A DNA stretch of 64,000 nt from an uncultured Acetobacteraceae bacterium (lineage in GTDB: Bacteria > Pseudomonadota > Alphaproteobacteria > Acetobacterales > Acetobacteraceae), in assembly GCA_964249915.1 (NCBI GenBank), contig CAXUEL010000001.1:6659-70658 (forward strand), in the 5' to 3' direction. This document shows, piece by piece, positions 1,632 through 25,124 of the stretch. Every line of letters begins with the position of its first letter. Position 1 is the first letter of the stretch. Under the pieces are notes generated by a model. The model saw nothing but the letters and a program-made list of their open reading frames with translations. It had not been told where the DNA came from and did not search any database. A program made the position numbers and the translations under genes.

Positions 1632-1747
1632 CGTCGCTCCCCTGGATAACTGAAACGTGCTAGCTGCATGCGTGCGGGCGCCGGCGTGCGCCCCGCTCCC
1701 ATTGCAGCCCGGAGCAAGCCCGGGAACAAGGGAGTCTCCAAGCGGAT

Positions 1748-2587: not shown

Positions 2588-2780
2588 AGCGGTCGCTGGC
2601 GCCAGCCGTCAGCTGCCAGCCCGGCACCGCGGGATCGTCTCCCGTCAGATATGATCCTCACCCGTCGGGACGGATCTCTTTCTTGATAGACCGGCAACAA
2701 AACAATGCGTTACCCTGCGCGAAGAGGTCATCCAGATCCGAACGCGGTGCGTAGACGCCCGAGGTAAGAGGAAACGTTCC

Positions 2781-3122: not shown

Positions 3123-3189
3123 GCAGCGCGGCCGCCGCGCGTCCCGACCGGTACGGCCGGCGCGCGGCACCCGGCCGGGCGAAGCCGGC

Positions 3190-3770
3190 GAGCGGGCCGC
3201 GGTCGGTCGTGCGGTCGGTGCCGGTGATGCAGCCCGCCTCGTCGGACACGAGCAGGACGGCCGAGACCGTGACCTCTTCCGGCAGGCCGAACCGGCCTGG
3301 TGGCATGTCGGCGATTAGCGCGTCCAGCTGCCCCGTACGGTCCGCACCCTGCCCCGGCATCGGCTCCCGGATCGGTGTCGGGGTGGCACCGGGATGGATC
3401 GAGTTGCAGCGGATGGCGAGCTGCGTGCACCGGAGGGCCATCGCATTGATATGGTTGCGCATGAAAGCTCCGGGCAAGGCATAGGCTGCAGCGGCCGGGA
3501 CGCCGGCCAGGCCGGAGCGGGACGACATGTTGATGTTCGCGCCGCGGCCGGTCGAACGCATCGTTTTGATCGCCCGCCTGTAGCCGAGGACCGTCGAGGC
3601 TGGCGTGATGCCACGGCCTGCTAGTCCTGCAGCGACGCGTGCTCCGGATCGTGGACGGCGCGCCGGTCTTGGGACCGATGACCACGGCGCTGTCGACCAG
3701 GATATCGAACTGGCCTGTGCGCGCCAGCAGGTCGCTCACCACCGCTTCCCGGGCGCACCGCAGCACCTTC
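3190..3770 (-). pseudogene. Decayed short-chain dehydrogenase/reductase (approximate bounds)
   Basis: SDR fragments in different frames: GQFDILVDSAVVIG; INMSSRSGLAGVPAAAAYA; IRCNSIHPG; GRFGLPEEV. Confidence 0.6.
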
Positions 3771-3892
3771 GGTCACGAACGCCCGCGCCATGGCCAGCCC
3801 GGGAGGCAGCGGACGGCCCCGGTGACGAGGGCGACCCGGCCGTGCAGCCTGTCAGGAATCGTGCCCGATCCCGACCCGCGCGGACGGTCCGC

Positions 3893-5098
3893 TCACCCCG
3901 ACAGGCCGGCGCAGAACCTGGCAATCCTGTCGCAGGCCCGGACCAGCGACTCGTCGCTCGACGCGACGCTGAGCCGGACGAACGGACTCATCCCGAACGC
4001 GCTGCCGGCCACGGTGGCGACATGCTGCTCTTCCAGCAGGGCCAGCGCGAAGTCGTCGTCAGTGGCGATCGGGCGTCCGCCGGCACTGGTGCGCCCGAGG
4101 CATCCGGCCACGCCCGGGTAGGCATAGAACGCGCCGTCCGGCACCGCACAGCTCAACCGGGGGATCGCCCGCAGCGCCGACACTACCAGGTCGCGGCGGC
4201 GGCGATAGGTGTCGCGCATGACCCCTACGCCGTCCTGCGGCCCGGACAGCGCCGCCACCGCCGCCGCCTGCGAGATCGACGACGCGCCGGAGGTCGAATG
4301 GCTCTGGATCGTCGACATCGCCTCGATCAGCCCCGCCGGCCCGCCGGCATAGCCGATCCGCCAGCCGGTCATCGCGTAGCTCTTGGATACGCCGGACAGC
4401 GTGAGCACCCGGTCGCGCAAGGCCGGCGCGGCGCGGGCCAGCGACACGTGCGGCGCGTCGTCGAACACGAGATGCTCGTAGATCTCGTCGCACAGGACCC
4501 ACACCTGCGGATGGCGCTCCAGCACGCCGGCCAGGGCCAGCAGGTCGGGTTCCGGACAGGTCGCGCCGGTCGGGTTGTTGGGAAAGTTCAGGATCACCCA
4601 GCGCGTGCGCGGCCCGATCGCCGCCTCCAGCGCCTCCGGCCGCAACCGGAACCGGTCGGCCTCGCGGCACGGCGCGAACACCGGCACGCCGCCCAGCAAC
4701 CGGACGATCAGCGGGTAGCTGGCCCAGTACGGCGACGGGATCACCACCTCGTCGCCGGGACCCAGCGTCGCCATCAGCGCGTTGAACAGGACCTGCTTGC
4801 CGCCGTTGGCGACGATCACCTCGTCGGCTGCGAACTGCAGCCCGTTCTCGCGCGCGAACTTGGCCCGCACCGCCGCCTTCAGCGCCGCGGTGCCGTCGGT
4901 CGGCGGATACTTCGTGTCGCCGTCGAGTGCTGCGCGGTGCGCGCCCTCCACCGCATGCGCCGGCGTCGCGAAGTCCGGCTCGCCCAGCGCCAGCGAGATC
5001 ACGTCGTGCCCCGCCGCACGCAGCGCGCGGGCGCGCACCGCCATCGCCACCGTGGCCGGCGCGGACAGACCCGACAGCCTCTCGGCGAGCTCCGGCAC
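3893..5098 (-). CDS. Class I/II PLP aminotransferase (aspartate aminotransferase-like), paralog 2
   Basis: [32 protein letters not shown]; GTG start. Confidence 0.9.
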   Translation of the reverse strand: MPELAERLSGLSAPATVAMAVRARALRAAGHDVISLALGEPDFATPAHAVEGAHRAALDGDTKYPPTDGTAALKAAVRAKFARENGLQFAADEVIVANGGKQVLFNALMATLGPGDEVVIPSPYWASYPLIVRLLGGVPVFAPCREADRFRLRPEALEAAIGPRTRWVILNFPNNPTGATCPEPDLLALAGVLERHPQVWVLCDEIYEHLVFDDAPHVSLARAAPALRDRVLTLSGVSKSYAMTGWRIGYAGGPAGLIEAMSTIQSHSTSGASSISQAAAVAALSGPQDGVGVMRDTYRRRRDLVVSALRAIPRLSCAVPDGAFYAYPGVAGCLGRTSAGGRPIATDDDFALALLEEQHVATVAGSAFGMSPFVRLSVASSDESLVRACDRIARFCAGLSG

Positions 5099-5110
5099 GG
5101 CGCGTCCGCC

Positions 5111-7880
<2,770 letters not shown>

Positions 7881-7913
7881 GCAGAGCCTCCGGCCGCTGG
7901 AGGATAGGCCGGT

Positions 7914-8774
7914 TCAGCCGTAGCCGGCCATCGCCCGCACGGCCGCCGGATCGAGCCCCTGCGCCCGCAAGCCGGCCAGGCTGGCGGCGCCGTCGCGCTT
8001 GGCGAGCCGGCGTCCGTCCGGGCCGCACAGCAGCGGATGATGCGCATAGGCCGGCTCCGGCCAGCCCATCAGCGCCTGCAGCAGCCGGTGCAGGTCGGTG
8101 CAGGGCAGCAGGTCGACCCCGCGCGTCACCAGCGTGACGCCGGCGAGCGCGTCGTCATGGGTGACGCACAGGTGGTAGCTGGCAGGCACCTCCTTGCGCG
8201 CCAGCACCACGTCGCCGAACCGTTCGGGACGGCAGCGGACCCGTCCCTGCCCGTCCTCGTGGCGATCCAGCGGACCGGCCGCCCGGCAGGCCGCCGCCAT
8301 GTCGAGGCGCAGCGCGTGCGGCGCCCCGGCGGCGAGGCGCTCGGTCCGAACGACCGGATCGAGCCCGCGGCAGGTGCCGGGATACAGGGCGGCCCCGTCC
8401 GGTGCCCGATGCGGCGCCGAACCGGCAGCGAGTATGTCGGCCCGGGTGCAGAAGCAGGGGTAGAGCAGCCCCTGGGCACCGAGCCGGTCGAGCGCTTGTC
8501 GATACTCCGGGAGGTGCGACGACTGCACCCGGACCGGCCCGTCCCAGTCCAGGCCGAGCCAGCGGAGGTCGCGCAACGCCGCGTCCGCCCAGTCCGGCCG
8601 GCAGCGGCCAGTGTCGATGTCCTCCAGACGCAGCAGGAACCGGCCGCCGGCCTGCCGTGCCCGGGTCCAGCCGGCCAGCGCCGAGCAAGCGTGGCCCAGG
8701 TGCAGCAGCCCGGTAGGGCTGGGGGCGAACCGGGTGCAGACGGCGCCGTCGACCGGTATCCGGAGTTCGCTCAT
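7914..8774 (-). CDS. gluQ: tRNA glutamyl-Q(34) synthetase GluQRS
   Basis: RFAPSPTGLLHLGH (HIGH-like), YPCFCTR, RLAKRD; short, no anticodon-binding domain. Confidence 0.9.
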   Translation of the reverse strand: MSELRIPVDGAVCTRFAPSPTGLLHLGHACSALAGWTRARQAGGRFLLRLEDIDTGRCRPDWADAALRDLRWLGLDWDGPVRVQSSHLPEYRQALDRLGAQGLLYPCFCTRADILAAGSAPHRAPDGAALYPGTCRGLDPVVRTERLAAGAPHALRLDMAAACRAAGPLDRHEDGQGRVRCRPERFGDVVLARKEVPASYHLCVTHDDALAGVTLVTRGVDLLPCTDLHRLLQALMGWPEPAYAHHPLLCGPDGRRLAKRDGAASLAGLRAQGLDPAAVRAMAGYG

Positions 8775-8996
8775 GCGACGGGATCGTGACACGAAGGCGG
8801 CGAATCCGCATCCGGCTTGCGGAGCGTCCAACCCTCTGCAATAGAAAGAACGGGTTCTCGACGACGCAGTCCGGCTGGCGTTCGTTTGATCGAATGTTCC
8901 GGCGCCGTGCATCGTCCCGGTCAAGGATGCGCTCTTGCCTGCTGGCGGCCGTTTCTGCCTGTTGTCGCTCCCAGGTCCGGCCGGGCTTTCCGCCGC

Positions 8997-9554
8997 GTGA
9001 GCCACATCCCGACCCTGCAGACCCTGGTGCTGAACGCCGACATGCAGCCGATGAGCTGGGGTCCGCTGTCGGTGTGGTCGTGGCAGGACGCGCTAGTGGC
9101 GGTGCTGCAGGAGCGTGTCACGCCGGTGATCAACTACGAGCACGAGGTGCGCTCGGCCACCCGCTCCTTCCCGATCCCGTCGGTGGTGGCGCTGAAGCAG
9201 TACCACCGGCGCAAGCGGGTGGCGTTCACCCGCTACCACGTGTTCCTGCGCGACGGGTTCCGCTGCCAGTACTGCAGCCAGGAGCTGTCGGCCAAGGAGC
9301 TCACCTTCGACCACGTGGTGCCGCGCTGCCGCGGCGGCACCACCTCGTGGAGCAACGTCGTCACCTGCTGCCAGCGCGACAACCTGCGCAAAGGCAGCCA
9401 GTCGCTCAAGCAGAGCGGCATGCACCTTCTGCGCCGTCCGAGCGAGCCGAGCCCCCGCCAGGTGGACGAGGCGGCCAAGCGGCACGCACCGCGCGACAAC
9501 CTGCACAAGACCTGGCTCGACTTCCTGTATTGGGACGCCAGCCTGGAGGCGTGA
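8997..9554 (+). CDS. HNH endonuclease (McrA/HNH_5-like)
   Basis: LRDGFRCQYC...LTFDHVVPRCRGG.TSWSNVVTCC..DN.RKG; GTG start inferred. Confidence 0.85.
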   Translation: MSHIPTLQTLVLNADMQPMSWGPLSVWSWQDALVAVLQERVTPVINYEHEVRSATRSFPIPSVVALKQYHRRKRVAFTRYHVFLRDGFRCQYCSQELSAKELTFDHVVPRCRGGTTSWSNVVTCCQRDNLRKGSQSLKQSGMHLLRRPSEPSPRQVDEAAKRHAPRDNLHKTWLDFLYWDASLEA

Positions 9555-9561
9555 GACCCGT

Positions 9562-10320
9562 TCAGCGCGTGCCGGCGCCGTCCAGGTCGGGCAGCGCCAC
9601 ACGGCCGGCGAAGACCTGCGCCACCGCCCCTGCCAGCACCTCCTGCACGCCCGACACCACGATCTGCACCCCGATGCACAGCAGGATCAGCGCCACCAGC
9701 CGGGTGACGATGCGCGCCCCCGACCGCCCCAGCAGCCGCACCAGCCGCGGCGCCCCCGAGTAGGCGATCCACACGATCGCGCACACCGCGGCGGCCGCCA
9801 GGCAGGCGCCGATGGTGAAGCCGAGCTGGTTGAGCAGCCCTGGCGCATCCGGCCGCTCCGCCCCCAGCGCGATCGCCACCGAGATACTGCCCGGCCCGAC
9901 CGTGAACGGCATGGTCAGCGGGAAGAACGCGGTGGAGGACACGTCGGCCGACGCCGTGCGGCCGTCCTGCCGCGCCTGGTCCTCCTTCTTGGCCTCGTTG
10001 GCTTCCGGCGCCTGCAGCAGGCTCCAGGCCCGCACTGCCACCACCAGGCCGCCGGCGATCCGGAGCGCTCCGATGGTGATGCCGAAGAAGGCGAGCAACG
10101 TGCTGCCGATCCACAGCGACACCAGCAGGATCAGCAGGCCGTAGAGCGCCACCTTGCGCGCCAGCATCGCCCGTTCCGCCGGGCTGCGCCCGTCGGTGAC
10201 CTCGGCGAAGATCAGCGAGGCGCCGAGCGGGTTGACGATGGAGAAAAGCGCCGGGAACGCCAGCAGGAAGGCGCCGGACACGCTGGCGAACCGCGCCGTC
10301 TCGGCGCTCGGGAAGACCAT
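9562..10320 (-). CDS. MarC family membrane protein
   Basis: LFSIVNPLG, LRIAGG, FFPLTMPFTVGPGSIS; six hydrophobic segments; start approximate. Confidence 0.85.
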   Translation of the reverse strand: MVFPSAETARFASVSGAFLLAFPALFSIVNPLGASLIFAEVTDGRSPAERAMLARKVALYGLLILLVSLWIGSTLLAFFGITIGALRIAGGLVVAVRAWSLLQAPEANEAKKEDQARQDGRTASADVSSTAFFPLTMPFTVGPGSISVAIALGAERPDAPGLLNQLGFTIGACLAAAAVCAIVWIAYSGAPRLVRLLGRSGARIVTRLVALILLCIGVQIVVSGVQEVLAGAVAQVFAGRVALPDLDGAGTR

Positions 10321-10468
10321 GGGCGCTCCGGGTGGAAGGGCTTCGGGTTCGAGGGCCGACCATAGCCCGGACGGACGGCCTGTCGAGACGGTCGCCGCTG
10401 GTGGTGACACCTGCGCCAAGGACTTGCGCGCCCTCCGGCAGTGCCCTAAATGCTCCGCGGTTGGCCAC

Positions 10469-10544
10469 GTCCTGTTCGTCTAGAGGCCTAGGACACCGCC
10501 CTCTCACGGCGGTAACAGGGGTTCGAATCCCCTACGGGACGCCA
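10469..10544 (+). tRNA. tRNA-Glu (anticodon CUC)
   Basis: 76 nt; acceptor GTCCTGT/ACGGGAC, anticodon arm CCGCC-CT-CTC-AC-GGCGG, T-loop GTTCGAATC, encoded CCA. Confidence 0.97.
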
Positions 10545-10570
10545 GCCTTCCGCGATTATAGCTTGTTTTA

Positions 10571-10619: not shown

Positions 10620-11801
10620 ATGGCGCGGACAAAGGCGGCAGATAACACCACGGACCCAGCGACCGGGCGCCCGCTCCCTGCGGGTGTGGCGTATCGCGGA
10701 CCCGCACAGTATCGCGCCAGGAAGCTCGTCGACGGGCAGCGCATCACCCGCACCTTCGAGACAGCTCGTAACGCCCGCGAGTGGCTGGAGGAGACGGCGG
10801 TCCGGGTTCGGGAGGGGTCCTTCGTGGACAGGCGACCTCTGGACCAATCGACGCTGGCCGAATTGGTCCAGAAATACGTGGACGCAGAGATGCAGGACGG
10901 CGGGCGCCGCCGGGGTGCGGCCGAAGACCGCGGCCATATCCCGGCTATCACCTCCGACGCCATCGGCAAGCTCCCGCTGTCCCGGCTGACGCCCGCAGCG
11001 GTCAGGGGGTTCAGAGACCGGCAGAAGCACAAGTTCGCGGCGGCAACCGTCGTCAAGCGGCTGAACCTTCTGGCGGGCATCCTTGCCCACGCCATCGCCG
11101 AGTGGGACCTGCCGCTGGGAGCCAATCCGGCGTCAAGCAAGTCGGTCGCTCGCCCCGAGGGCGCCGACGTGAAGCGCGACCGACGCCTGATGCTGCCGAC
11201 TGCCCAAGCCGTCCGTGCTGCCGCCGCCCGGGGCGAGGAGCCGCCTAAGGGCGAAGAGACCTCGCTGCTCGAGGCGGTGGCGAAGAGCGGGTGCCCGGAC
11301 GACATCCTGGTCGTGAGGCTCGCGATCGCCCAGGCCATGCGCCAGGGTGAGATTCTAGCTCTCCGATGGGGTGATATCGACGAGGATGCTCGGGTCATGA
11401 AAGTCCGCGGGCGACACGGCCGGGGCACGAAGACGGCAAAGCACCAGAAGACTGCGCGCACCAAGGCCGAGGTCGGCTGGGAAGTCCGTCCCTTGATGCC
11501 CGAGGCGCTTGATATCCTCAGCGAGAAGCGAGGCCACAGGGAGCCGCAGGCGGACGAGCTCGTGTTCGACGTTGGTGGGAGTGCCGCATTCAAGGTCCGC
11601 ATCGGCCGCCGCTTCGCCTCCGCGTGCGCCGACCTCACATTCCACGACCTGCGACACGAAGCCACGTCTCGCCTGGCCAAGCGATACCCAAACCCCATGG
11701 ACCTCAAGCGGGTGACGGGGCACCAGGACCTGAAGTCCCTGGATCGCTACTATCAGCCGGACCTCACCGAGCTGGCGGGCGCAAGGGAAACCGCGGCGTG
11801 A
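10620..11801 (+). CDS. int: Phage tyrosine integrase
   Basis: AMRQGEILALRW (R), TFHDLRHEATSRL (HxxR), VTGHQDLKSLDRYY (H, Y); N-terminal arm-binding region. Confidence 0.93.
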   Translation: MARTKAADNTTDPATGRPLPAGVAYRGPAQYRARKLVDGQRITRTFETARNAREWLEETAVRVREGSFVDRRPLDQSTLAELVQKYVDAEMQDGGRRRGAAEDRGHIPAITSDAIGKLPLSRLTPAAVRGFRDRQKHKFAAATVVKRLNLLAGILAHAIAEWDLPLGANPASSKSVARPEGADVKRDRRLMLPTAQAVRAAAARGEEPPKGEETSLLEAVAKSGCPDDILVVRLAIAQAMRQGEILALRWGDIDEDARVMKVRGRHGRGTKTAKHQKTARTKAEVGWEVRPLMPEALDILSEKRGHREPQADELVFDVGGSAAFKVRIGRRFASACADLTFHDLRHEATSRLAKRYPNPMDLKRVTGHQDLKSLDRYYQPDLTELAGARETAA

Positions 11802-12174: not shown

Positions 12175-12474
12175 GTGCCTGCCCTACCCTCAACCGTCGC
12201 ACCTGCGGTGCTCTCGTACGCTCAGGCCGCCGACTACCTCGGCCTGCCCTCCGTTGGGGCGCTCAGAAACCTAGTCTACCGAAGGACGGCCCCGCCCTCG
12301 ATCGCTTTCGGCCAGAGGGACCGTCGCTTCCGGAGAGCTGACATCGACGCGTGGCTCGCGGCAAAAGCGCGTGCTGGTCAGGTCGAGAGTGCGGTCGCGG
12401 AGGCACGGCAGCCGCAGGTGCCCCGCCGTAGGGGTAGGCCGACGAAGGCTGAGGCACTGGCGCGGCGGGGGTAG
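12175..12474 (+). CDS. Excisionase / AlpA-like HTH protein
   Basis: LSYAQAADYLGL...RRFRRADIDAWL pattern; basic RRRGRPTK tail. Confidence 0.8.
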   Translation: MPALPSTVAPAVLSYAQAADYLGLPSVGALRNLVYRRTAPPSIAFGQRDRRFRRADIDAWLAAKARAGQVESAVAEARQPQVPRRRGRPTKAEALARRG

Positions 12475-12493
12475 CGGCTGGCAGCATCCCGCC

Positions 12494-12964
12494 ATGCCGC
12501 AGCAGACCACCCGCTATCAGTCCCCCTTCCCCGAGGTCTCGGACGTGCGCCGCCGCACGATGTCCAGGATCCGCAGTAAGAACACCAAGCCAGAGATGCT
12601 GGTCCGCCGAGCGATCCATGGCCTGGGCTACCGCTTCAGGCTGCATCGCCGAGATCTGCCCGGCCGACCTGACATCGTGTTCCCCGGTAGACGCAAGGCC
12701 GTCTTCATCCACGGCTGCTTCTGGCACCAGCACGCCATGCCTGGCTGCCGGGATTCAGGGCTGCCTCGAACGCGACGAGACTACTGGGTCCCCAAGTTGG
12801 AGAGGAATGTTGCCCGCGATCGTTGCAACGTGGCCGAACTGCGCGCCGCTGGATGGGGCGTGTTGGTCATCTGGGAATGCGAGCTCAATGACATGCAGGC
12901 AGTCCTCGAACGCCTCGTCGCGTTTCTTGGGCTACCAAGATCAGCAGGCCAGCCAAAGCGGTGA
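12494..12964 (+). CDS. vsr: Very short patch repair endonuclease
   Basis: MSRIRSKNTKPE, GYRFRLH..DLPGRPDIVF, FIHGCFWHQH, LVIWEC. Confidence 0.93.
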   Translation: MPQQTTRYQSPFPEVSDVRRRTMSRIRSKNTKPEMLVRRAIHGLGYRFRLHRRDLPGRPDIVFPGRRKAVFIHGCFWHQHAMPGCRDSGLPRTRRDYWVPKLERNVARDRCNVAELRAAGWGVLVIWECELNDMQAVLERLVAFLGLPRSAGQPKR

Positions 12965-13029
12965 AAGCCGTCCGAGGATGCCCGCGCATTCGATCGTCGG
13001 CTCCAACCCCGCCGACGTCTTCCTGCCGT

Positions 13030-13365
13030 CTACCGCTCGTTCTCGTCCACCTCGGGGTCGATTTCCAGCTCGGTCGCTATGACCTCGGCATCGTCGTCCA
13101 GGTCGTCCTGGACTTCGGTCGCGTCCTCGGCATCCTCTTCCTCTTCAGGCACCTCTGCTTCGTTATCGGCGTCATCCGCCTCGACGACAGGCTTCTTGGG
13201 GCGTCGCTCCTCCGCGATCAGGTTTCCGGAGCGTCGCATCCGGGGTGGGTCTATAGGCTGGACGGTCTCGCACTTCGGGCAAACGGCTGGAACCTTGGTC
13301 AGGTCGTAGAAGCGCGTGTTGCAGGAAACGCAGATGCGCTTCATGCCGAGTTCTGGCTTGGCCAT
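13030..13365 (-). CDS. TIGR02300 / FYDLN_acid family protein
   Basis: MAKPELG.KR.C.SC..RFYDL.K.P.VCPKC followed by an acidic tail. Confidence 0.9.
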   Translation of the reverse strand: MAKPELGMKRICVSCNTRFYDLTKVPAVCPKCETVQPIDPPRMRRSGNLIAEERRPKKPVVEADDADNEAEVPEEEEDAEDATEVQDDLDDDAEVIATELEIDPEVDENER

Positions 13366-13648
13366 TGTGACCTTGGATCAGAGGTGATGTATGCCGAGCC
13401 GGGGCCGATGCCACCATGCCACGGCGCTGTCAAACCTCCTTCCGCCCAGCGATATCAGCGGTCGGTCTGCCGACTGAGTCACTCGAGCAACATTTGACGC
13501 GAATCGGCACGCCCTCCTTAAAGGATCGGGCTAACGCTTCCGACCCCTCTTGCGAGCGTGACCGCTGGATGCGACCTGTGGAACGGATGGGGAACTGGCG
13601 CTGTGGCGGTGCCTTCTTCGTCTGAGGTTCCTGAAGACGGAGCTCCGT

Positions 13649-14623
13649 ATGCACACATCAATCGACCTGTTCTGCGGCGCCGGTGGCCTCTCGATCGGTC
13701 TGGAGCGCTCGGGGTTCGCCCCACTGTTTGCGGCCGACATCATGAGCGATGCCTGCGACACCTATGCCGCCCGGTTCCAGGGCGTGGAGCTTCATCGCGG
13801 CGATACCCGGACGGTTGATTTCAAGCGCTTCAGCGGCATTGACCTGGTTGCGGGCGGCCCGCCCTGCCAGCCCTTCAGCTCCGGGGGGAAGCGAGAAGGG
13901 CGTGACGACGCGCGTGACGTGCTGCCGGAGTTCGTGCGCGCCGTGCTTGAGGCTGGGCCGCGTGCGTTCCTGATGGAGAACGTCGCTGGCTTAGCCACGA
14001 CCCATGTGGCCTACCTGAACCGCGTCCTGGCGCCCCTTTTCGGGCGCTATACGATCACAGGTCCGACAGTTCTTAACGCCGCCGACTTCGGCGTTCCTCA
14101 AAGCCGCAAGCGGATGGTAATCGTCGGAGTGGAGAAGGGGCGCAGGGCCGTGAGGCTGCCCACCTCAACCGTGCGGCGCCACACACGATCCGGGGATATC
14201 CTTTCGCCTCGCGCACGAGGAACCCTGAATCTCAGCCGCATCACCTACGCGAAGACACCCGACCTCAGGCCATCCCCCTATCACGGCCAGCTATTCAACG
14301 GCGGCGGCCGTCCTATCGACCTGGATGGCCCGGCCCCTACGATCCTGGCGTCAGCCGGAGGGAACAAGACGCCATTCGTAGACGTAGGTGGCCACGTCCC
14401 GTCGTACCATGGCCACCTTCTCGCTGGTGGGCCGCCGCGTCAGGGCGATCTAGACGATGCGCGGCGCATCACAGTCGAGGAGTGCGCTGCGCTTCAGACC
14501 TTCCCTGAGGACATGAGATTCAGCGGCTCGCGGAGCTCTCGCTACACTCAGGTTGGAAATGCAGTCCCGCCGCTGTTCGCGGCGGCCGTCGCAAGCTGCG
14601 TCCTGGAGGCGCTCCGCCGGTAG
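13649..14623 (+). CDS. DNA (cytosine-5)-methyltransferase
   Basis: DLFCGAGG, GGPPCQPFS, ENV, QSRKR, QTFP, QVGNAVPP (motifs I, IV, VI, VIII, IX, X). Confidence 0.95.
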   Translation: MHTSIDLFCGAGGLSIGLERSGFAPLFAADIMSDACDTYAARFQGVELHRGDTRTVDFKRFSGIDLVAGGPPCQPFSSGGKREGRDDARDVLPEFVRAVLEAGPRAFLMENVAGLATTHVAYLNRVLAPLFGRYTITGPTVLNAADFGVPQSRKRMVIVGVEKGRRAVRLPTSTVRRHTRSGDILSPRARGTLNLSRITYAKTPDLRPSPYHGQLFNGGGRPIDLDGPAPTILASAGGNKTPFVDVGGHVPSYHGHLLAGGPPRQGDLDDARRITVEECAALQTFPEDMRFSGSRSSRYTQVGNAVPPLFAAAVASCVLEALRR

Positions 14624-14625
14624 CT

Positions 14626-15693
14626 TCACGGGGCCACATCCGGGATCTCCACGAGAGCATTGGCCTCAAGCACCGCCACCAAGCGATTCGCTGGTCCGAC
14701 ATCCGCTACCATGTGAGCGAGGTATTCATGAAGCCTCATCAGGAAGCGCTCCCTTCCAGGCTTCCGAAGGATCGCGACACCGGTCATCAAGAGCGACCGG
14801 ATGTCGAGGACAGAGACATCTCCCCCTGCCTGCTCCAGAACGTCCAGGCTGCTGATAATGTCTCCCGCCGTCGCGTGCGCCACCACGTGCGCCCGATCAA
14901 GGCCGCGGCCTCTGGCGACATCCGCCGCCTGGTCGATCTTGGTCCTCCAGTCGTTTGCGGACACCTCGAACGCCTCATCCACTCGGCCAAGAGTCAGGAT
15001 CTCGACATCCCCTGCCGTGCCGGAGCTGGCGTCGCTCGCGTTCAGGCGCTTGGTCTGGACGCGCATGCCTCCGATGGACCACTCGCCCAGCAGCGCCTCC
15101 ATGATGGCTGCCACTGAGTATTGCTCCATGGCACCGCCACTTCCCTCTGCCAGGATGTCGCGCAGCACCTTCAAAGTCGCGGCGAAGGTCAGCCTGGCGG
15201 TCAGTATCCTAGGCAACGGCCGGATGCTGCGGGCGGTGGAGGCTGCTTTCGCGAGCAGGAATGTCAGAGCGGCACGACGATCGCCCGCGGATGCCGCGTT
15301 GGCCCACAGCAGGAGGCTGTCGAAGTGCGCAACGTTTCCTCGGGCAAGGTTGTCGACGTTCTTCCCAATGTTCTGGAAGGCGTCCGTCACCGCCGGGATG
15401 TGCCGCTTCCTCATCAAGGAGCCCAGGCTCTTCGCGATGCCTCTGCCTCCCGGTGCGCGCTGCCGATGATCAAAGTGCTGCCCATCTGCGGTGAGGCCAG
15501 ATGCAATCTGGATGATGGCGCCGTCTCGGTAGCTCTGCGCCGCTTGCAGGGTGCCTTCCAGCAGCGGAAGGGCCGCCGCGAGCGCCCTGGCGTCGACAGC
15601 CTGATCGCTGCCTCCGGCATTGAGCAAAAGAGAGTCCAGGATGCTGGCCACAAGCTCGACGGCAGGCTCCGCCATGTCGTCATTCTCCGTCAA
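14626..15693 (-). CDS. Probable type II restriction endonuclease (possibly SacI-like)
   Basis: Convergent with the C5 MTase; SGGAMEQ...NASDASSGTAGDVE...AFEVS resembles a PD-(D/E)XK core. Confidence 0.6.
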   Translation of the reverse strand: MTENDDMAEPAVELVASILDSLLLNAGGSDQAVDARALAAALPLLEGTLQAAQSYRDGAIIQIASGLTADGQHFDHRQRAPGGRGIAKSLGSLMRKRHIPAVTDAFQNIGKNVDNLARGNVAHFDSLLLWANAASAGDRRAALTFLLAKAASTARSIRPLPRILTARLTFAATLKVLRDILAEGSGGAMEQYSVAAIMEALLGEWSIGGMRVQTKRLNASDASSGTAGDVEILTLGRVDEAFEVSANDWRTKIDQAADVARGRGLDRAHVVAHATAGDIISSLDVLEQAGGDVSVLDIRSLLMTGVAILRKPGRERFLMRLHEYLAHMVADVGPANRLVAVLEANALVEIPDVAP

Positions 15694-17468: not shown

Positions 17469-19595
17469 ATGCAACTCGTTTACGAAGCAAGCCGCGCTCG
17501 TTGGGAGGCGATCACGAGATACGGCGAAGGCGATGCGCCCCGGGCTGCCGGATTCTGCTGGAACCGGGACCTGACGCGGTGGAGCACCTACGATGCGGCC
17601 GCCGCGAACAAGCTCCGCTCCTCCGCTGACGAGGCCACCCGCGCGCTACTGGATACCGCCGTGGCCCTGGCATCCGAAGCTACAGCAGCCGCCGACGCTG
17701 CCAAGGCCGCCGCTTCCGAGGCCGCCGTCGCCGCGAGCCGGGCGACGGACGCGGACATGGAAATCCCGGTGCCGGATGGGCTGGCGTATCTCGGCTATCA
17801 AAAGGCGGGCATCGCATACGCTACGGCGCGCAAGGACACGCTGATTGCCGATGAGCCTGGTTTGGGCAAGACCATCCAAGCTTTGGGTCTGGCCAACACC
17901 CTGCTCTCGGATGCCAAGCCGGTTGTGCGGCTGCTCGTCGTCGGGCCGAAAATCGCGCTCTGGAACTGGCGCCGCGAGGCCGAGAAGTGGTTGGTCAGGC
18001 CGCACCGCATCGCGCTGTGGACGTCGAAGAGCCAACCGGATGCCGACGTGGTCATCGTGAACTACGATGTCATCTCCCGCCCGGCGGTGGCGGCGGCATT
18101 GCGGGCGCAGACGTGGGATATCGCGGTATTCGACGAGGCACATGCGCTCAAGAACGAGAAGGCGGCTCGGACCAAGGCGTGCCTTGGTTCGAAGAAGGAG
18201 AAAATCGAGGCCATCCCCGCTGCGCGCCGCCTGTTCCTGACCGGCACGCCGATTTTGAACCGCCCGGTCGAGCTCTACCCTATACTCCACGCGATGCGCA
18301 TCCCCGAGGCCGCCCTCTACATCGACTACGCCATGCGCTACTGCGAAGGCCGCCACACCAGCTATGGCTACGATGCGAGCGGTGCCAGCAACCTCGATGA
18401 GCTGCAGGCTGTCCTCCGCGAGAAGGTCATGGTCAGGCGCCTGAAGGCCGACGTCCTGACCGAGTTGCCCGCGAAGCGATACGCCGTCGTCGAGCTTGAG
18501 GCGGACACCGCGGACCTCCGGCGTGCCGTCGTCGCCGAGGTCGCGGCCAAGGCGGCCTCGGACGAGCAGGAGAAGCGCCTGCGTGCCGCGGTGGCCGCCG
18601 CGCGCAGGGGCGGGAACCCGGCTGCGCTGAAGGTGGCCATCGACCGGCTGAGCCACGGGATGCGCGTCGCGTTCACCGAGATGAGCCGCCTACGCCATGC
18701 GACCGCAGTCGCCAAGGTCCCGCAGGTCATCGAGCACGTGTCGGCGTTGCTCGACGGATCCGACGAGTCCGTCCTGGTGATGGCCCACCATGCCGACGTC
18801 ATCGCGGGCATCGTGGCCGGTCTGGCAGAGGCGGGACACGAGGCGGCCGTGATTACCGGGGACACGTCGGATGCGGACCGCCAGCGTGCCCAGGACGACG
18901 TTCAGGCACGCCGGAAGCGCGTGTTCGTGGGCTCGATGAGGGCATGCGGGGTCGCGATCACGCTTACGGCCGCATCGACGGTCGTTTTTGGGGAACAGGA
19001 TTGGACCCCGGGCATCATGCAGCAGGCCGAGGATCGGGCGCACCGCATCGGTCAGGACTCCTCGGTGCTGGTGCAGCATCTAGTCGTCGACGGCTCAATC
19101 GACGCGTCGATGGCGAAGGCGGTCAGCAGCAAAGGCGGCGTCATCTCGGCCGCCCTGGACGACACCGACGAGGAAGTCGCGCAGGCGGATGAGGCCCCTA
19201 CCGTCGAGGCGGCGGATGATGAAGAGGTTTTCGTAACGCAGGAACAGGATGCCCATCCGGAGCCGGAGGCCCCTGTCCCCGAAGCCGCCGAGCCGGTCGA
19301 GGCCGCCAAGGCTGTGCAGGAAGCCGTCGTGGAGCCGGAGCCGGAAGCGGAAGGGATTTTCGTAACGCAGGAGTCCCCTGCCCCGGCCGCCCGCCGTCCG
19401 CGTGGCCGCCCCCGCATCGGCGCCGATGCGATGCCTGCGGCCGAACGCATGCGGCGCTGGCGGGAGCGACATCGGATTTCGGGCGTCGAGGTTCCTGCGG
19501 CGCTCGCGGACAGGATCCGGCGCCTGCGCGCGGAGCGTGGCGAAACCAAGGCGCAGGTTCTTGCGGCTGCGCTGGCTGCCATCGACACGGCGTAG
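17469..19595 (+). CDS. SNF2/SMARCAL1(HARP)-like helicase with acidic linker and C-terminal DNA-binding module
   Basis: ADEPGLGKT, FDEAH, LTGTPILNRP, MVRRLKADVL, GVAITLT, QQAEDRAHRIGQ. Confidence 0.9.
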   Translation: MQLVYEASRARWEAITRYGEGDAPRAAGFCWNRDLTRWSTYDAAAANKLRSSADEATRALLDTAVALASEATAAADAAKAAASEAAVAASRATDADMEIPVPDGLAYLGYQKAGIAYATARKDTLIADEPGLGKTIQALGLANTLLSDAKPVVRLLVVGPKIALWNWRREAEKWLVRPHRIALWTSKSQPDADVVIVNYDVISRPAVAAALRAQTWDIAVFDEAHALKNEKAARTKACLGSKKEKIEAIPAARRLFLTGTPILNRPVELYPILHAMRIPEAALYIDYAMRYCEGRHTSYGYDASGASNLDELQAVLREKVMVRRLKADVLTELPAKRYAVVELEADTADLRRAVVAEVAAKAASDEQEKRLRAAVAAARRGGNPAALKVAIDRLSHGMRVAFTEMSRLRHATAVAKVPQVIEHVSALLDGSDESVLVMAHHADVIAGIVAGLAEAGHEAAVITGDTSDADRQRAQDDVQARRKRVFVGSMRACGVAITLTAASTVVFGEQDWTPGIMQQAEDRAHRIGQDSSVLVQHLVVDGSIDASMAKAVSSKGGVISAALDDTDEEVAQADEAPTVEAADDEEVFVTQEQDAHPEPEAPVPEAAEPVEAAKAVQEAVVEPEPEAEGIFVTQESPAPAARRPRGRPRIGADAMPAAERMRRWRERHRISGVEVPAALADRIRRLRAERGETKAQVLAAALAAIDTA

Positions 19596-20349: not shown

Positions 20350-20603
20350 GACGGGCACGCTCCTGTGGGCGGTGGCGGCGGGCCTTCTTGGACGAGCGCG
20401 AGCATCACGGTGTCCAGGAGCGCAAGCACGGTTCCGAGTGCCTGGACCTTGTCCGGGTCGCACTTCCATCCGACCAAGAGGACGGCGGCGTTGATGATCG
20501 CGACGATGGTGCTGGCTTGGGTGAGCTGCCCAAGGATGATGGCCGCCGCGCCCGGGCGGCACCGCCACCGCCAGTGGCCGAACCGGTCAGGCACCCACCG
20601 CAT
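20346..20603 (-). CDS. Putative holin
   Basis: 85 aa with 2 hydrophobic segments, directly after the endolysin. Confidence 0.6.
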   Translation of the reverse strand: MRWVPDRFGHWRWRCRPGAAAIILGQLTQASTIVAIINAAVLLVGWKCDPDKVQALGTVLALLDTVMLALVQEGPPPPPTGACPS

Positions 20604-21210
20604 GGCGGACCTCCTCGGCGAAGGATGCGAACAACCCGACGTGCGCCGGGGCCGCGACAGGCGCCGGTGTCGGTGCGGCCGCCGGTGTCGCCAGGGCGAG
20701 CTGCAGCCTGGCGTTGTTCCGATTGGTCCAGCCGCGGCCGAACTCGGCGAAGTCGGTCAGGCTCTCGTAGTACGCCTCGTGCCTGGCGCCCAGCTTCCGG
20801 ATCAGGTCCAGCCGGTCGACGCGGGCGGTCGCGGCCAGGGTCACCGGGCCGAGGCGACCGTCGATTGCGAGGCCGCCGATGGTCTCCTGCAGCAGCTTTG
20901 CGGCGGTCGCCGATCCGGCCGTGTAGCCGAAGTCGTAACAGAGTAGGTCTACACCCGGCGGGAGCTGGTCTGCTGCGACCGCCATCCAGTAGCGGCTGTA
21001 GATCAGGTCGCTCAGCTCGTCCTTGGTCGCGGCCGCGAGGTCGGCTTCCGTGGTCGAGTGAATCCCGTGGTCGGACCGCCAGGAGGCGTAGGACGATAGG
21101 GTGACTCCCCAGGACGTGGCCCCGCCCCTGTCACCGGGTGTGACGTGCAAGGGCTGGCCGTCGTTCTGCGGAAGCCATGTAAAGTCCAAGCAGGTTTCGA
21201 AGCGGCTCAT
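20587..21210 (-). CDS. Endolysin, GH108 family with peptidoglycan-binding C-terminus
   Basis: PGDRGGATSWGVT, IYSRYW, LPPGVDLLCYDFG, IDGRLGPVTL, FGRGWTNR; GGAGG RBS. Confidence 0.85.
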   Translation of the reverse strand: MSRFETCLDFTWLPQNDGQPLHVTPGDRGGATSWGVTLSSYASWRSDHGIHSTTEADLAAATKDELSDLIYSRYWMAVAADQLPPGVDLLCYDFGYTAGSATAAKLLQETIGGLAIDGRLGPVTLAATARVDRLDLIRKLGARHEAYYESLTDFAEFGRGWTNRNNARLQLALATPAAAPTPAPVAAPAHVGLFASFAEEVRHAVGA

Positions 21211-21221
21211 GTGCGCCTCCA

Positions 21222-21250
21222 ATAAAAAAAGGCCGCCCGAAGGCAGCCCG
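21222..21250 (-). terminator. Intrinsic terminator immediately upstream of the endolysin
   Basis: Minus strand GGGCTGCC-TTC-GGGCGGCC followed by T7. Confidence 0.7.
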
Positions 21251-21279: not shown

Positions 21280-21477
21280 CTAGCCGAGCTCGCGAATCAG
21301 GTCAGCGAGCGTCCGCGGGCGGTCGGCATCGTCGGCGGCGGCGAGCAGTCGGGCGGCAAGGATGCGGGCGAGGTCGGACCGGAGTTCGACGTTGACGTCG
21401 GCGCCGTATGTCTCAAGGTGGAGGGAGATTTTGACGAGCTCGGCCACGGATGGGCCGACTTCGATGCGCGACGTCAT
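21280..21477 (-). CDS. Hypothetical protein (65 aa)
   Basis: GGAGGCGCACATG start context identical to the endolysin's. Confidence 0.6.
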   Translation of the reverse strand: MTSRIEVGPSVAELVKISLHLETYGADVNVELRSDLARILAARLLAAADDADRPRTLADLIRELG

Positions 21478-21589
21478 GTGCGCCTCCTGAAAATGAAGAA
21501 CCCCGCCGATGAGGACGGGGGCCGTTGGTGGTTGGGGTGTTCAGACCGCTCGGCGAGCGGTAGCTGTTGGCGGCAGCCTGGAGGCCGAC

Positions 21590-22111
21590 ATGGTCAGCGC
21601 CCACCCACATTCGTTCCGCCTTCATCTAAAGCGATGGGGACGGTCCGTCGGAGGGTTCCACGATGATAAGGTCAGCGAGAAGTCTGTCTGGCTGTTCGTG
21701 TCAGCCTGTAGTTGGACGGACGACGAGTTTGTCTTGAGCAACGGTGAACAGGTTTACTCCCGAGACTTTCGTCTCGTGGTGTATCCAGGCGAACCGCTAC
21801 TCCGTGACGGCACGCAGATAACAGGAGGAGGCGGCATCCTAAGCTACGTTCCAGCCTACGACGAGCTAGCGTCCAGCTTCGATGGTCGTGTCTACGTCGA
21901 CCAGGAATGCTTCGCGGACATTTGCAGCCTGCTTCCCGCCATGGCTACCGGCGGATATGAGTGCGACCTCCGCATGGCGCTGAGCGGCCTGGAGTTCAAA
22001 TTACCGGAGACCTTCGTCTGGGATGTCGATGCAAACCCGCACATCGTCATCCAATCTTTCCAGTTTGGCATCACGTCGAAGGCGCCGCCGGAGGACGACG
22101 GTCAGCCGTAA
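21590..22111 (+). CDS. Moron-like hypothetical protein, antisense to the late operon
   Basis: GGAGG RBS; lower GC; globular composition. Confidence 0.65.
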   Translation: MVSAHPHSFRLHLKRWGRSVGGFHDDKVSEKSVWLFVSACSWTDDEFVLSNGEQVYSRDFRLVVYPGEPLLRDGTQITGGGGILSYVPAYDELASSFDGRVYVDQECFADICSLLPAMATGGYECDLRMALSGLEFKLPETFVWDVDANPHIVIQSFQFGITSKAPPEDDGQP

Positions 22112-22685
22112 CCGCCTGCCGTAGGGCTCGAGCATCCTCCAGAAGCGCACGCACCTCTTCGACGGCGCAGTCGAGGTCGTCGTTCTCGACTTGGTGGTCG
22201 AACTCGCTCCGATGGGACATCTCCGAACCCGCATCCGCCATCCTGGACTCGATGTCGGCAGCGGCGTCGCCACGGCGTTCCAGGCGCGCCCGGAGTTCCG
22301 CCATCGACGGCGGCACGAGGAACACGCCCACGACGTCGCCGGGGAGCTGGTCGCGGAGCCGACGGTGGCCTTGCCAGTCGATGACGAAGACCACGTCGGT
22401 TCCGGCATCCAGGGCGGCCTCGACCGGCGCCCTCGGAATGCCGTAGCTGCGGCCGAAGACGGTGGCGTGCTCGAGCATGGAGTCCGACGTCACGAGGAGG
22501 TCGAACTCCCTTTGGTCGCAGAAATAGTAGTCGACCCCGTCAAGCTCGCCTGGTCGCGGGGACCGGGTGGTGGCGCTGACCGACTGCCGCAGGCCAGGGT
22601 CGGTGGCGAGCAGCCTGGACATCATCGTGGTCTTGCCGCCGCCGGACGGCGAGGCCAGCACCAGGCATAGACCACGACGGCTCAT
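22071..22685 (-). CDS. gmk: Guanylate kinase (phage-borne)
   Basis: LASPSGGGKTT P-loop, SVSATTRSPRPGELDGVDYYF, LEHATVFGRSYG, VIDWQG, VFLVPPS.AELRARL. Confidence 0.92.
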   Translation of the reverse strand: MSRRGLCLVLASPSGGGKTTMMSRLLATDPGLRQSVSATTRSPRPGELDGVDYYFCDQREFDLLVTSDSMLEHATVFGRSYGIPRAPVEAALDAGTDVVFVIDWQGHRRLRDQLPGDVVGVFLVPPSMAELRARLERRGDAAADIESRMADAGSEMSHRSEFDHQVENDDLDCAVEEVRALLEDARALRQAVTADRRPPAAPST

Positions 22686-22858
22686 GATGCGGCCCTCCTG
22701 GCGGCGGCGGCCTCGATATCGCGGCGCTCTTGGATGACGGTGTTCACCGTCCGTCGTGTGCATCCCATGCGCTCGGCGATCACCGAGGACGACAGCCCTT
22801 GTCGATGAAGATGCCAGATTCGGTCGTGGTCGACCGAGGTGTTGCTGCGGGCGGCCAT
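22682..22858 (-). CDS. 58-aa HTH protein (not in the ORF track)
   Basis: Manual translation MAARSNTSVDHDRIWHLHRQGLSSSVIAERMGCTRRTVNTVIQERR...; TGATG and ATGA overlaps with both neighbours. Confidence 0.8.
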   Translation of the reverse strand: MAARSNTSVDHDRIWHLHRQGLSSSVIAERMGCTRRTVNTVIQERRDIEAAAARRAAS

Positions 22859-24603
22859 CACGCAGCCCTCCTGAGCGCAGCAACCTGGACAACCGGAGCG
22901 CCTCTCCAGCGTGGGCCACGCTGCGTCAGGATTGCGCGCTTCCCGCTAGGATACGTAACAATGTGGCTGTGTGACCAGGAACTCGGCCCGCAGTTGTAGC
23001 CCATGTCCAGGTTTCCGCTGACCCCGGCGGTGTAGATGCCGTCCGTGATGCCTGCGGAGTGCGTGTGCGCGGTGTTCGCCCGCACGCCGAGTTGCCGGAA
23101 GGACCGCGGCGAACCCCTGGAACCGTTGGGGCCGCGGTGTCCATGCAACCCGCATTGGATGCCACCGCCCTGTTCGGCGCAGACCACCCACGAGTCATCT
23201 TCGCGCAGGAACCGGACCGCCTTAGCCACGTCGGACAGCTTATCCCGTACGGCGGCTTCGAACACGAAGAGGTCCTGCCCGGCCTCGATGCTCTGGAACA
23301 TCCTGTAGTTCCAGTAGTGCCAGAACCTCGCGTTCGGCGCGTCCCGGTGGCCATCGGCCTCGGCCAGCCACCTGCGGAAAGCCTGGTCGTGATTGGATTC
23401 CACGACGACTGTCTGGCACCAGTCGCGGTGGATCCTATCCAGCTTGGCCGCGCACCCTGCGAGGTCGGCCTCTACCCTGTCCAGGCCCCGTGCGTGCATT
23501 ACCGCGTTGAAGTATGGGTCCTGCCTGTTGTGATGGTTGCGCGCGGTGAAGTCCGCTAAATCATGCACATGCTGCTCGCGCGGGCGGAGGGACTCCAGGA
23601 TGGAGCCGGGACCGCCGAAGCATGCGTCAGCGACGATGGGGTCTGCCTTCTCTTCGTGGAAGTCCCCCCATGTCACCGCCTCGACACGAGACCTTGTGAC
23701 ACCGGTCGGCGAGTAGTGGAACTCCAGGTCGTGGAAGCATCCGCTGTCGTCGGCGAGCAACTGCCGGACAAACCAAGCGCCATCGGCATCGACTTCGACG
23801 ACCAGGGCACCGAACACGTGATGAAAGCTGGCCTTCTGTCCGGCTTTCCTCTCGACGTAATTTCGCTGGGTGACGGTTCCCGTCGTGTACAGGAAGCGAG
23901 CCGCTTCATGCTTCATCGTCGCCATGCTCTTCATGGCGACCTTCGCATGCGGCACTATCGCCGACGCCGACCGCGTGTAGCTGTCGAGACCGGAAAGCGG
24001 ATCGGTCGCGGTAGGCAAGATATCCAGCTCTCCGCACCACACCAGGCCATGCGCTAGCTCCAGACTCTCATCGCACACGTATTCGAGGATTTCCGGATCA
24101 TACCAGAGGTCTTCGTCCTGCTTGGTCGCCTTCGAGGCCCATGCCGACTTGTTATAAGAGAACCGCGACACGAGGATTTCCGCGTCGTGTGCGGCGGCGT
24201 AGGTGCGCAGGCTTGCGAGGAAGCCAGAATGCACGTGGGTGTTGTTCTGCGCGCTTGTCAGCACGAACCTTCGACGGTCGCGGCTGACAGGTTTCGGGGC
24301 CGGGCTGGGGATGCGGCCACCAGCGACCGGGCGCTCCTCGGTGTCATCGTTCGCGGGTACGGCATCCGGAGCGCTGCGTGTCTCCAGCAGCAGCCTAAGC
24401 GCCGCGACCTGAGCGACCAAGTCCTCGACGGTGGGTGCCGCACCGACTCGCGTAGCGGCCACCTTTCGACGGCGGTGGATTGTTGCGGGTGAGACCCCTT
24501 CGAGCTGCGCTTCCGCGCGGAGCGTCATGGGGCGGTGCGCGACCTCGGCAGATGCCGGGACAACGGGCGCACGCGTGGCGACGTTGGTTCGCATGTGTTT
24601 CAT
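22858..24603 (-). CDS. T5 A1-like metallophosphoesterase / putative DNase with N-terminal HTH
   Basis: RFVLTSAQNNT, LPTATDPLSG, KAGQKASFHHVFGALVVE, WGDFHEEK, HDLADFTARNHHNR, VVESNHD, GLHGHRGPNGSRG, THSAGI, LDMGYN collinear with recalled T5 A1. Confidence 0.85.
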   Translation of the reverse strand: MKHMRTNVATRAPVVPASAEVAHRPMTLRAEAQLEGVSPATIHRRRKVAATRVGAAPTVEDLVAQVAALRLLLETRSAPDAVPANDDTEERPVAGGRIPSPAPKPVSRDRRRFVLTSAQNNTHVHSGFLASLRTYAAAHDAEILVSRFSYNKSAWASKATKQDEDLWYDPEILEYVCDESLELAHGLVWCGELDILPTATDPLSGLDSYTRSASAIVPHAKVAMKSMATMKHEAARFLYTTGTVTQRNYVERKAGQKASFHHVFGALVVEVDADGAWFVRQLLADDSGCFHDLEFHYSPTGVTRSRVEAVTWGDFHEEKADPIVADACFGGPGSILESLRPREQHVHDLADFTARNHHNRQDPYFNAVMHARGLDRVEADLAGCAAKLDRIHRDWCQTVVVESNHDQAFRRWLAEADGHRDAPNARFWHYWNYRMFQSIEAGQDLFVFEAAVRDKLSDVAKAVRFLREDDSWVVCAEQGGGIQCGLHGHRGPNGSRGSPRSFRQLGVRANTAHTHSAGITDGIYTAGVSGNLDMGYNCGPSSWSHSHIVTYPSGKRAILTQRGPRWRGAPVVQVAALRRAA

Positions 24604-24726
24604 GGTGCGACCTCGTCCGGGTGGTTTGCAGGAACGCAGCGGGAAGTCCGCGTCCTCAAAGTCAGCTTGACGAAGCGGCACGCACAAAAGCAAGAAGGCT
24701 GCAAGCAAAGGATGCTGTTATTCGTG

Positions 24727-24755
24727 TTATGTCCACAGCCTTTGCGGAATGTAAA
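24727..24755 (-). promoter_or_regulatory. Candidate sigma70 promoter for the A1-HTH-gmk operon
   Basis: TTTACA-N18-CATAAC in an AT-rich gap on the minus strand. Confidence 0.4.
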
Positions 24756-24758
24756 CTT

Positions 24759-25124
24759 TTAGCGGTGACCGAAGCGGTTGTCCTTGAGAAACACCACGTC
24801 TGCTCCGACTTCTGCCAACTTCGTGCGGAGGTCGCTGAGCGTGTCGGACAGCAGGCGCATCTGCTCGTCTCGGCTCTTCGTCCGCTCCTCAAACTCCATT
24901 TCGAGATGCGAAAGCCGCTTTTCGTGATCGGCGAGTTGGGAGTAAGCACCCGCTGCATACCAGATGCCTACGACGAGTTGAGCCAGGACTGCGATAATCA
25001 CCGCTACGCCAATCGACTTGTCGATTTGCCATCCGCTCGGCGCACGGACTATCACGCTCTGTACAGATGCGGACGGAGCTACAATTGTCGGAGGCGGTGC
25101 TCCGGAAGTCGTGGATTCGGACAT
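24759..25124 (-). CDS. Single-TM + coiled-coil protein (holin/XhlA-like)
   Basis: WQIDKSIGVAVIIAVLAQLVVGIWYAA followed by heptad repeats; lower GC. Confidence 0.6.
   Translation of the reverse strand: MSESTTSGAPPPTIVAPSASVQSVIVRAPSGWQIDKSIGVAVIIAVLAQLVVGIWYAAGAYSQLADHEKRLSHLEMEFEERTKSRDEQMRLLSDTLSDLRTKLAEVGADVVFLKDNRFGHR

Follow-up and report, generated by a model that had tools for sequence, protein, structure and literature searches.

An intact guanylate kinase gene of cellular type in a myovirus-like Acetobacteraceae prophage, translationally coupled to a homologue of the T5 A1 gene

Phage-encoded guanylate kinases (Gmk) are already catalogued in PHROG 1815 and in several isolated phages, including Liberibacter phage SC1 (gp39), Bacillus phage Kirov (gp189), Geobacillus phage GR1 (UDY80718) and Bacillus phage vB_BcoS-136 (gmk). 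These are full-length, cellular-type enzymes of tailed phages, and their genes lie among genes of DNA or nucleotide metabolism. The order is polymerase, helicase, ligase and gmk in SC1; ribonucleotide reductase (RNR), thioredoxin, dUTPase and gmk in Kirov; and dUTPase, NUDIX, thioredoxin and gmk in GR1. No functional study of any phage Gmk was found in the literature searched. Here, a gmk gene (22071–22685, minus strand) was analysed in a 64,000-nucleotide stretch of DNA from an uncultured Acetobacteraceae bacterium (GenBank contig CAXUEL010000001.1), which is called the window below and to which all positions refer unless another contig is named. It is a further, independently acquired example of a phage gmk. 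Like SC1, its carrier is a temperate phage of an alphaproteobacterium. Unlike the PHROG 1815 phage genes, it is fused in an operon with a metallophosphoesterase gene and a helix-turn-helix (HTH) gene, not with polymerase, RNR or dUTPase genes. Since phage gmk genes are already catalogued, the finding is less unusual than an earlier note on this DNA had implied.

T4 gp1 is a deoxynucleoside-monophosphate (dNMP) kinase that phosphorylates deoxyguanosine monophosphate (dGMP) and passes host-DNA breakdown products into phage DNA; its specificity is the broader one (dGMP, dTMP and hydroxymethyl-dCMP). The window Gmk may be a similar phage-supplied dGMP kinase with a role in salvage, although of an unrelated family. 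For T5, the A1 protein is a predicted metallophosphatase that is essential and sufficient, according to the report cited here, for host chromosome degradation; expressed alone, it is toxic and degrades the chromosome. Unlike T4 and T7, T5 dephosphorylates the degradation products with Dmp and excretes them (preprint 10.64898/2026.04.02.716235).

The gmk reading frame is present on the minus strand only, and the plus strand of 22071–22685 is interrupted by stops. The gene encodes 204 amino acids (aa) from an ATG at 22685. This start has AGGAGG 9 nt ahead and overlaps the stop of the preceding gene (ATGA), and homologues start at the same position. A GTG at 22919, giving an in-frame upstream extension, was rejected as the start because the ribosome-binding site (RBS), the overlap and the homologue starts all belong to ATG 22685. 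The protein matched Pfam PF00625 (1e-35; 123.5 bits against a cut-off of 25.2; 177 of 182 profile positions) and PHROG 1815 ‘guanylate kinase’ (7.5e-30). It also scored 193.7 bits against the NCBIfam equivalog TIGR03263, above the curated cut-off of 160.45, and matched solved bacterial Gmks (7u5f, 1.6e-44; E. coli 2an9, 4.5e-43). The motifs that the earlier note had read from the letters, namely the P-loop, TTR..RPGE.DG.DYYF, YG and DWQG, are all present, and with the equivalog cut-off passed its call of an intact gmk holds. On the minus strand, the P-loop SPSGGGKTT (GxxGxGK[ST], ATP binding) occupies residues 12–20 (~22626–22652), the GMP-binding stretch SATTRSPRPGELDGVDYYF residues 37–55 (~22521–22577), YG residues 81–82 (22440–22445) and DWQG residues 103–106 (22368–22379). 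The LID arginines R134, R138 and R148 are present, as are the GMP-binding residues S37, R41, R44, Y53, E72, Y81 and D103, which align with those of E. coli Gmk. In an alignment of 207 homologues, the consensus residue was kept by the prophage protein in 56 of the 56 columns conserved at 85% or more, far beyond chance. I83, which follows YG in place of the usual T or S, is common to 29 of the 207 homologues, cellular ones included. The protein thus resembles cellular Gmks (TIGR03263; E. coli Gmk, 2an9) in length, motifs and conserved residues. It differs from them in standing in a prophage operon instead of a chromosomal housekeeping locus, and in a variable, proline-rich C-terminal tail. As judged from the family scores and the kept catalytic residues, the gene is an intact guanylate kinase gene.

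The gmk gene is the last of a translationally coupled trio on the minus strand, behind an A1-like gene (22858–24603) and an HTH gene (22682–22861). At both junctions the stop and start codons overlap by 4 nt, and each downstream start follows (A)GGAGG; the same arrangement was found in 3 of 3 related prophages. The first gene, with a probable start at ATG 24603, encodes a 581-aa homologue of T5 A1 (‘DNA transfer protein’, predicted metallophosphatase). It matched PHROG 1745 with 4.5e-189 and T5 A1 with 41% identity over 493 aa (E 7e-123). It is also 47–52% identical to A1 or DNA transfer proteins of many virulent phages, with Rhizobium, Pseudomonas and Agrobacterium among the hosts. Invariant GD.H, RNHHN, SNHD, HGH and HTHS blocks, which are His/Asp motifs of metallophosphatase type, are present. 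This protein is also longer at its N-terminus by ~90 aa, in which an HTH-like stretch (GVSPATIHRRRK) was observed. The second gene, for a 59-aa HTH protein, shares bases with both neighbours: its start codon with the stop codon of the A1-like gene, and its stop codon with the start codon of gmk (ATGA). It is kept upstream of gmk in all three related prophages.

The trio resembles the T5 A1/A2/Dmp set in that an A1 homologue is followed by a small DNA-binding-type protein and then by an enzyme acting on (d)NMPs. However, the HTH protein has no similarity to T5 A2, and no Dmp homologue is adjacent, gmk being in that place. The third enzyme is a kinase, which retains nucleotides, whereas that of T5 is a 5′-nucleotidase, which discards them. 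Moreover, T5 is a virulent member of the Demerecviridae, and here the T5 A1 homologue is carried by a temperate, integrase-bearing, myovirus-like prophage. Upstream of the trio lies a non-coding region of 156 nt (24604–24759, minus strand), a candidate promoter/operator with blocks conserved in a Lichenicola prophage described below. Its mean column identity with that prophage is 83%, compared with dS (synonymous divergence) values of 0.8–1.0 in the flanking genes. Long blocks within it are identical in the two prophages, for example GCAAAGGCTGTGGACA and TTGCAGCCTTCTTGCTTTTGTGC, even though the flanking genes are close to saturation at their synonymous sites.

The closest Gmk, 79% identical, belongs to a Lichenicola sp. 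metagenome-assembled genome (MAG) with a complete chromosome, OZ240668.1. It is encoded there by a syntenic prophage that has the genes for baseplate, fibre, A1-like protein, HTH protein, Gmk, a 65-aa protein and endolysin in this order. Between the window and this prophage, gmk has a ratio of nonsynonymous to synonymous divergence (dN/dS) of 0.21 with a dS of 0.76, and its phage neighbours have dN/dS of 0.10–0.37 with dS of 0.6–1.2. The values for gmk are like those of its neighbours, indicating that it has evolved in step with the phage and under purifying selection. Contig JBPBPD010000764.1 carries a third syntenic prophage, with an HTH protein 46% and a Gmk 66% identical to those of the window. 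The 4-nt overlaps are the same, with a fibre gene upstream and a 64-aa gene and a GH108 endolysin gene downstream. In this prophage, the A1-like slot (3061–4074 of that contig) is occupied by a gene for a 337-aa protein, and HTH-Gmk is kept, indicating that the constant unit is metallophosphoesterase, HTH and Gmk. The 337-aa protein shares 37–46% identity with proteins labelled ‘metallo-phosphoesterase’ in T7-like phages of Aeromonas and Vibrio, and gave no Pfam or PDB match. It was rejected as an A1 relative because it showed no BLAST similarity to the A1-like protein. Just ahead of its gene, at 2950–3021, a remnant of the A1-like N-terminus (aa 60–83) was observed.

The region from 10545 to at least 64000 is a prophage of a myovirus-like temperate phage. 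Its left border is a tRNA-Glu(CTC) gene (10469–10544, plus strand), where the G+C content falls from ~0.71 to ~0.65; it is ~65% up to the window end. Directly after the tRNA gene lies a tyrosine integrase gene (10622–11801, plus strand, start inferred; PHROG 1, 3.8e-41). Metagenome contigs of related bacteria (four runs) match the host flank up to the 3′ end of tRNA-Glu and then diverge, which fixes the left border. For the right attachment site, no repeat of at least 14 nt from the tRNA-Glu region was found elsewhere in the 64-kb window, and the window contains no counterpart of the genes that lie past tRNA-Glu in Lichenicola cladoniae. The right end either lies past 64000 or cannot be recognised. 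On the minus strand, the order is lysis genes (GH108 endolysin), gmk, the small HTH gene, the T5 A1-like gene, a spanin-like gene and then the virion module (26022–48829: tail fibre, baseplate, tape measure, sheath, major capsid, portal and large terminase). Replication genes, a primase-polymerase among them, come after the virion module. The gmk gene is flanked by phage genes for more than 10 kb on each side, and the integrase/tRNA border at 10545 is 11.5 kb away. It is thus inside the phage genome and outside the flanking host DNA. These phage neighbours, the integrase at tRNA-Glu, the two further syntenic prophages and the dN/dS of 0.21 bear out the proposal of the earlier note that gmk is a prophage-encoded, auxiliary gene of nucleotide metabolism. 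A megablast search against 50,697 phage records gave no match, that is, no near-identical phage genome.

The origin of the kinase was examined by comparison with phage and cellular homologues. The prophage protein has only 27–32% identity to the catalogued Gmks of phages (Bacillus, Liberibacter, Geobacillus and others). The remaining close homologues, at 58–72% identity, are Gmks of Acetobacteraceae-type bacteria. This difference indicates an independent capture from the host's own bacterial family. Cellular relatives with readable context adjoin genes for RpoD, SecA or FtsH, for CdsA and an acyltransferase (PlsC), for a Na+/H+ exchanger or for an aminotransferase. In a bootstrapped neighbour-joining tree, the window and Lichenicola prophage Gmks paired in 186 of 200 replicates. 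The pair lay within a 21-member clade (146/200) that includes cellular copies, with short branches and inner nodes unresolved. The phylogeny proposed earlier thus places the prophage protein with cellular Gmks of Acetobacteraceae type. By sequence, the prophage Gmk is host-derived and carries no active-site changes or sign of functional divergence. No relatives of it were found in IMG/VR. Matches of ~41% from tblastn to ‘phage’ records of Salmonella, Campylobacter, Listeria and Enterococcus were not used; they look like host DNA in phage-labelled records. The gmk gene is essential and near-universal, and a second, host copy is assumed. For the cellular gmk of the 4,218,377-bp Lichenicola chromosome, a search seeded with a Lichenicola-like cellular Gmk returned no protein of that chromosome among the 120 matches listed.

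Taken together, we consider it somewhat probable that this is a catalytically ordinary Gmk, captured and kept by the phage, which acts in the lytic cycle as a (d)GMP kinase recycling dGMP from degraded host DNA. The gene would have been captured from a cellular genome of the Acetobacteraceae, and retained, by a temperate myovirus-like phage of the same group. The operon would be turned on in lytic growth, and the A1-like enzyme would degrade host DNA to 5′-mononucleotides. The phage Gmk, predicted to catalyse ATP + (d)GMP → ADP + (d)GDP, would then increase the capacity of the cell to re-phosphorylate dGMP (and GMP), with dGMP as the presumed relevant substrate. Host nucleoside-diphosphate kinase would carry the product on to dGTP and GTP for replication and transcription of the 65% G+C phage genome. 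Such a strategy would be T4-like salvage and the opposite of T5 A1 and Dmp, which discards nucleotides. A dNMP enzyme beside A1 has precedent: the gene next after A1 in Rhizobium phage RHEph09 encodes a dNMP phosphatase of Dmp type, and 15 of 80 IMG/VR loci with an A1-like gene have a Dmp homologue no more than 5 kb from it. The gmk genes of SC1, Kirov and GR1 likewise belong to modules of replication or nucleotide supply. For a (d)GMP kinase behind a phosphoesterase, salvage of dGMP towards dGTP would be the simplest reading.

Several points weigh against this reading. The tail module lies on one side of the gene and the lysis module on the other, which is a typical setting of ‘moron’ cargo genes that may be expressed in the lysogen. 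Upstream of the trio (24604–24759), no consensus sigma-70 promoter was found. Among the window open reading frames (ORFs) screened, neither a kinase for the other three dNMPs nor another nucleotide-metabolism enzyme was found. That the A1-like protein of a temperate phage degrades host DNA is putative, by analogy with its T5 homologue, and the sequence does not tell whether dGMP is preferred to GMP. Moreover, no gmk was found near the A1-like genes of 80 IMG/VR and 6 JGI metagenome loci, indicating that the pairing is confined to a small prophage lineage of three.

A more specific form of the salvage reading can be put forward tentatively. The metallophosphoesterase, HTH and Gmk genes may form a self-contained temperate-phage cassette that degrades the host genome and keeps the guanine nucleotides, Gmk having been chosen since dGMP re-phosphorylation limits salvage in a high-G+C host. 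In this case, the first gene swaps between two unrelated phosphoesterases with HTH-Gmk constant, and the cassette, if real, would be the functional mirror image of the ‘degrade and discard’ module of T5 A1 and Dmp.

Other functions of the gene were also considered. It could be lysogenic-conversion cargo, expressed from the resident prophage and aiding the host, for example through a second Gmk dose for GTP synthesis. The position between tail and lysis modules is a frequent moron site, an adjacent ~520-bp insertion shows that the spot takes cargo, and the area is bracketed by terminator-like hairpins. However, gmk is coupled through the HTH gene to the A1-like gene, and the T5 homologue of the latter, when expressed alone, is toxic and breaks down the chromosome. 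A lysogen that expressed these genes together would therefore be killed, unless gmk is transcribed from an internal promoter; a search for such a promoter found none. Conversion cargo is thus unlikely. A neutral passenger, that is, a recently captured piece of host DNA with no phage role, would fit a typical cellular-type Gmk that is 60–72% identical to cellular Gmks and has short tree branches. We regard this as very unlikely, because gmk is kept at the same site in three diverged prophages with a dN/dS of 0.21 and a dS like that of its neighbours, and because it is tightly coupled in translation and has its own strong RBS. An extra Gmk could also compensate for a defence or stress response through which the infected host depletes its guanine nucleotides or diverts them. 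The prophage has other conflict genes (a restriction-modification system with Vsr, and an SNF2 helicase). In Staphylococcus aureus, mutations in host gmk confer post-adsorption phage resistance (PMC6532042), indicating that Gmk activity can limit phage growth. However, the trio gave no match to PADLOC defence models. Furthermore, we know of no defence with a product that Gmk would reverse, and Gmk does not act on deoxyguanosine, the product of defences of the dGTPase type. A counter-defence function is therefore quite unlikely.

The earlier note had proposed three roles, of which the raised supply of dGTP and GTP gains support from the gene neighbours and the remaining two gain none. One of these was a bypass of stringent control, in which a (p)ppGpp-insensitive Gmk sustains GTP synthesis during host shutdown. 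Gmk is a (p)ppGpp target in several phyla, but is reported not to be inhibited in Proteobacteria (PMC6783271). The host is alphaproteobacterial, and its phage has a Gmk of the type found in cells of that group, so there would be nothing to escape, making this explanation highly improbable. The other was the use of modified guanine nucleotides, or more broadly an altered specificity for a modified purine nucleotide, for example the monophosphate of 7-deazaguanine or of 2-aminoadenine. A link to DNA modification might be seen in the prophage SNF2 helicase, which matches DpdE models, though it matches ZorD and DrmD equally. Against this, the conserved Gmk residues are all unchanged, active-site residues included, and the sole DNA modification gene is a C5-cytosine methyltransferase gene. 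No base-modification pathway genes (DpdA/TGT, QueC/D/E, FolE or PurZ-like) were found among the window ORFs screened. This last explanation is extremely improbable.

Downstream of gmk, the first terminator-like G+C hairpin, with a T-rich tail, lies at 21501–21520 (minus strand). It is conserved in the Lichenicola prophage, in which it lies within ~40 nt after gmk. A conserved 65-aa gene (21280–21477, minus strand) follows between the trio and the lysis genes, then a second conserved terminator-like hairpin (21230–21249, minus strand) and the GH108/PG_binding_3 endolysin gene (20587–21222, minus strand). Both hairpins are nearly identical in the Lichenicola prophage, and each stands directly before an AGGAGG/GGAGG RBS and a start codon. 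They may be regulated terminators ahead of the lysis genes. The ~520-bp insertion, of lower G+C content (0.58) and absent from the Lichenicola prophage, lies within 21521–22070 between gmk and the hairpin. It holds an ORF of 173 aa with a good RBS (21590–22111, plus strand), which is convergent with gmk and overlaps its last 41 nt. Pfam, PHROGs, NCBIfam and PADLOC gave no match for this ORF, and a set of 1.84 billion representative proteins yielded only 5 distant relatives (best E 2e-16). The ORF may be a moron.

Behind the integrase lie genes for a Vsr very-short-patch endonuclease (12371–12964), a C5-cytosine methyltransferase (13649–14623) and a convergent 355-aa candidate type II restriction enzyme (14626–15693; PADLOC REase_II, 1.6e-12). 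Together (12371–15693), they are probably a phage-borne restriction-modification system with a mismatch-repair companion. A 708-aa SNF2-family helicase (17469–19595, plus strand) follows; it matches ZorD, DpdE, DrmD and BrxH models (best 2e-36), and no partner genes of these four defence systems were seen near it. Besides the A1-like gene, the only other nucleic-acid enzymes found, both in the replication arm, were a small second calcineurin-like phosphoesterase (51853–52389, minus strand; PHROG 547, Metallophos_2) and an 887-aa primase-polymerase (56699–59362, minus strand).

Bases 1–10450 are ordinary chromosome of 70–74% G+C with genes for aminotransferases, a GluQ-type synthetase, MarC and others. 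The proteins of this flank are 76–78% identical to those of Lichenicola species, indicating that the host is an uncultured Acetobacteraceae bacterium. The window is part of a metagenome contig of 86.8 kb. The flank (window 1–10544) is syntenic with Lichenicola cladoniae, in which a PQQ (pyrroloquinoline quinone) dehydrogenase gene lies between MarC and tRNA-Glu and an HNH gene stands in place of the GluQ-synthetase-like gene of the window. These differences indicate that the neighbourhood of the integration site is variable. NCBI MAG records labelled ‘Janthinobacterium lividum’ were also seen to encode proteins nearest to Lichenicola/Acetobacteraceae, including an aminotransferase 79% identical to that of the window's host flank, and a prophage syntenic with that of the window. 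Their label looks wrong, or the bin mixed.

For the biology of these phages, the conserved pairing with a T5 A1-type homologue gives a testable idea of the purpose of a phage Gmk, namely dGMP salvage from degraded host DNA. It also indicates that homologues of A1-type genes for host-DNA degradation occur in temperate prophages too. For annotation, a gmk match in a high-G+C alphaproteobacterial contig may be prophage cargo and not the housekeeping gene.

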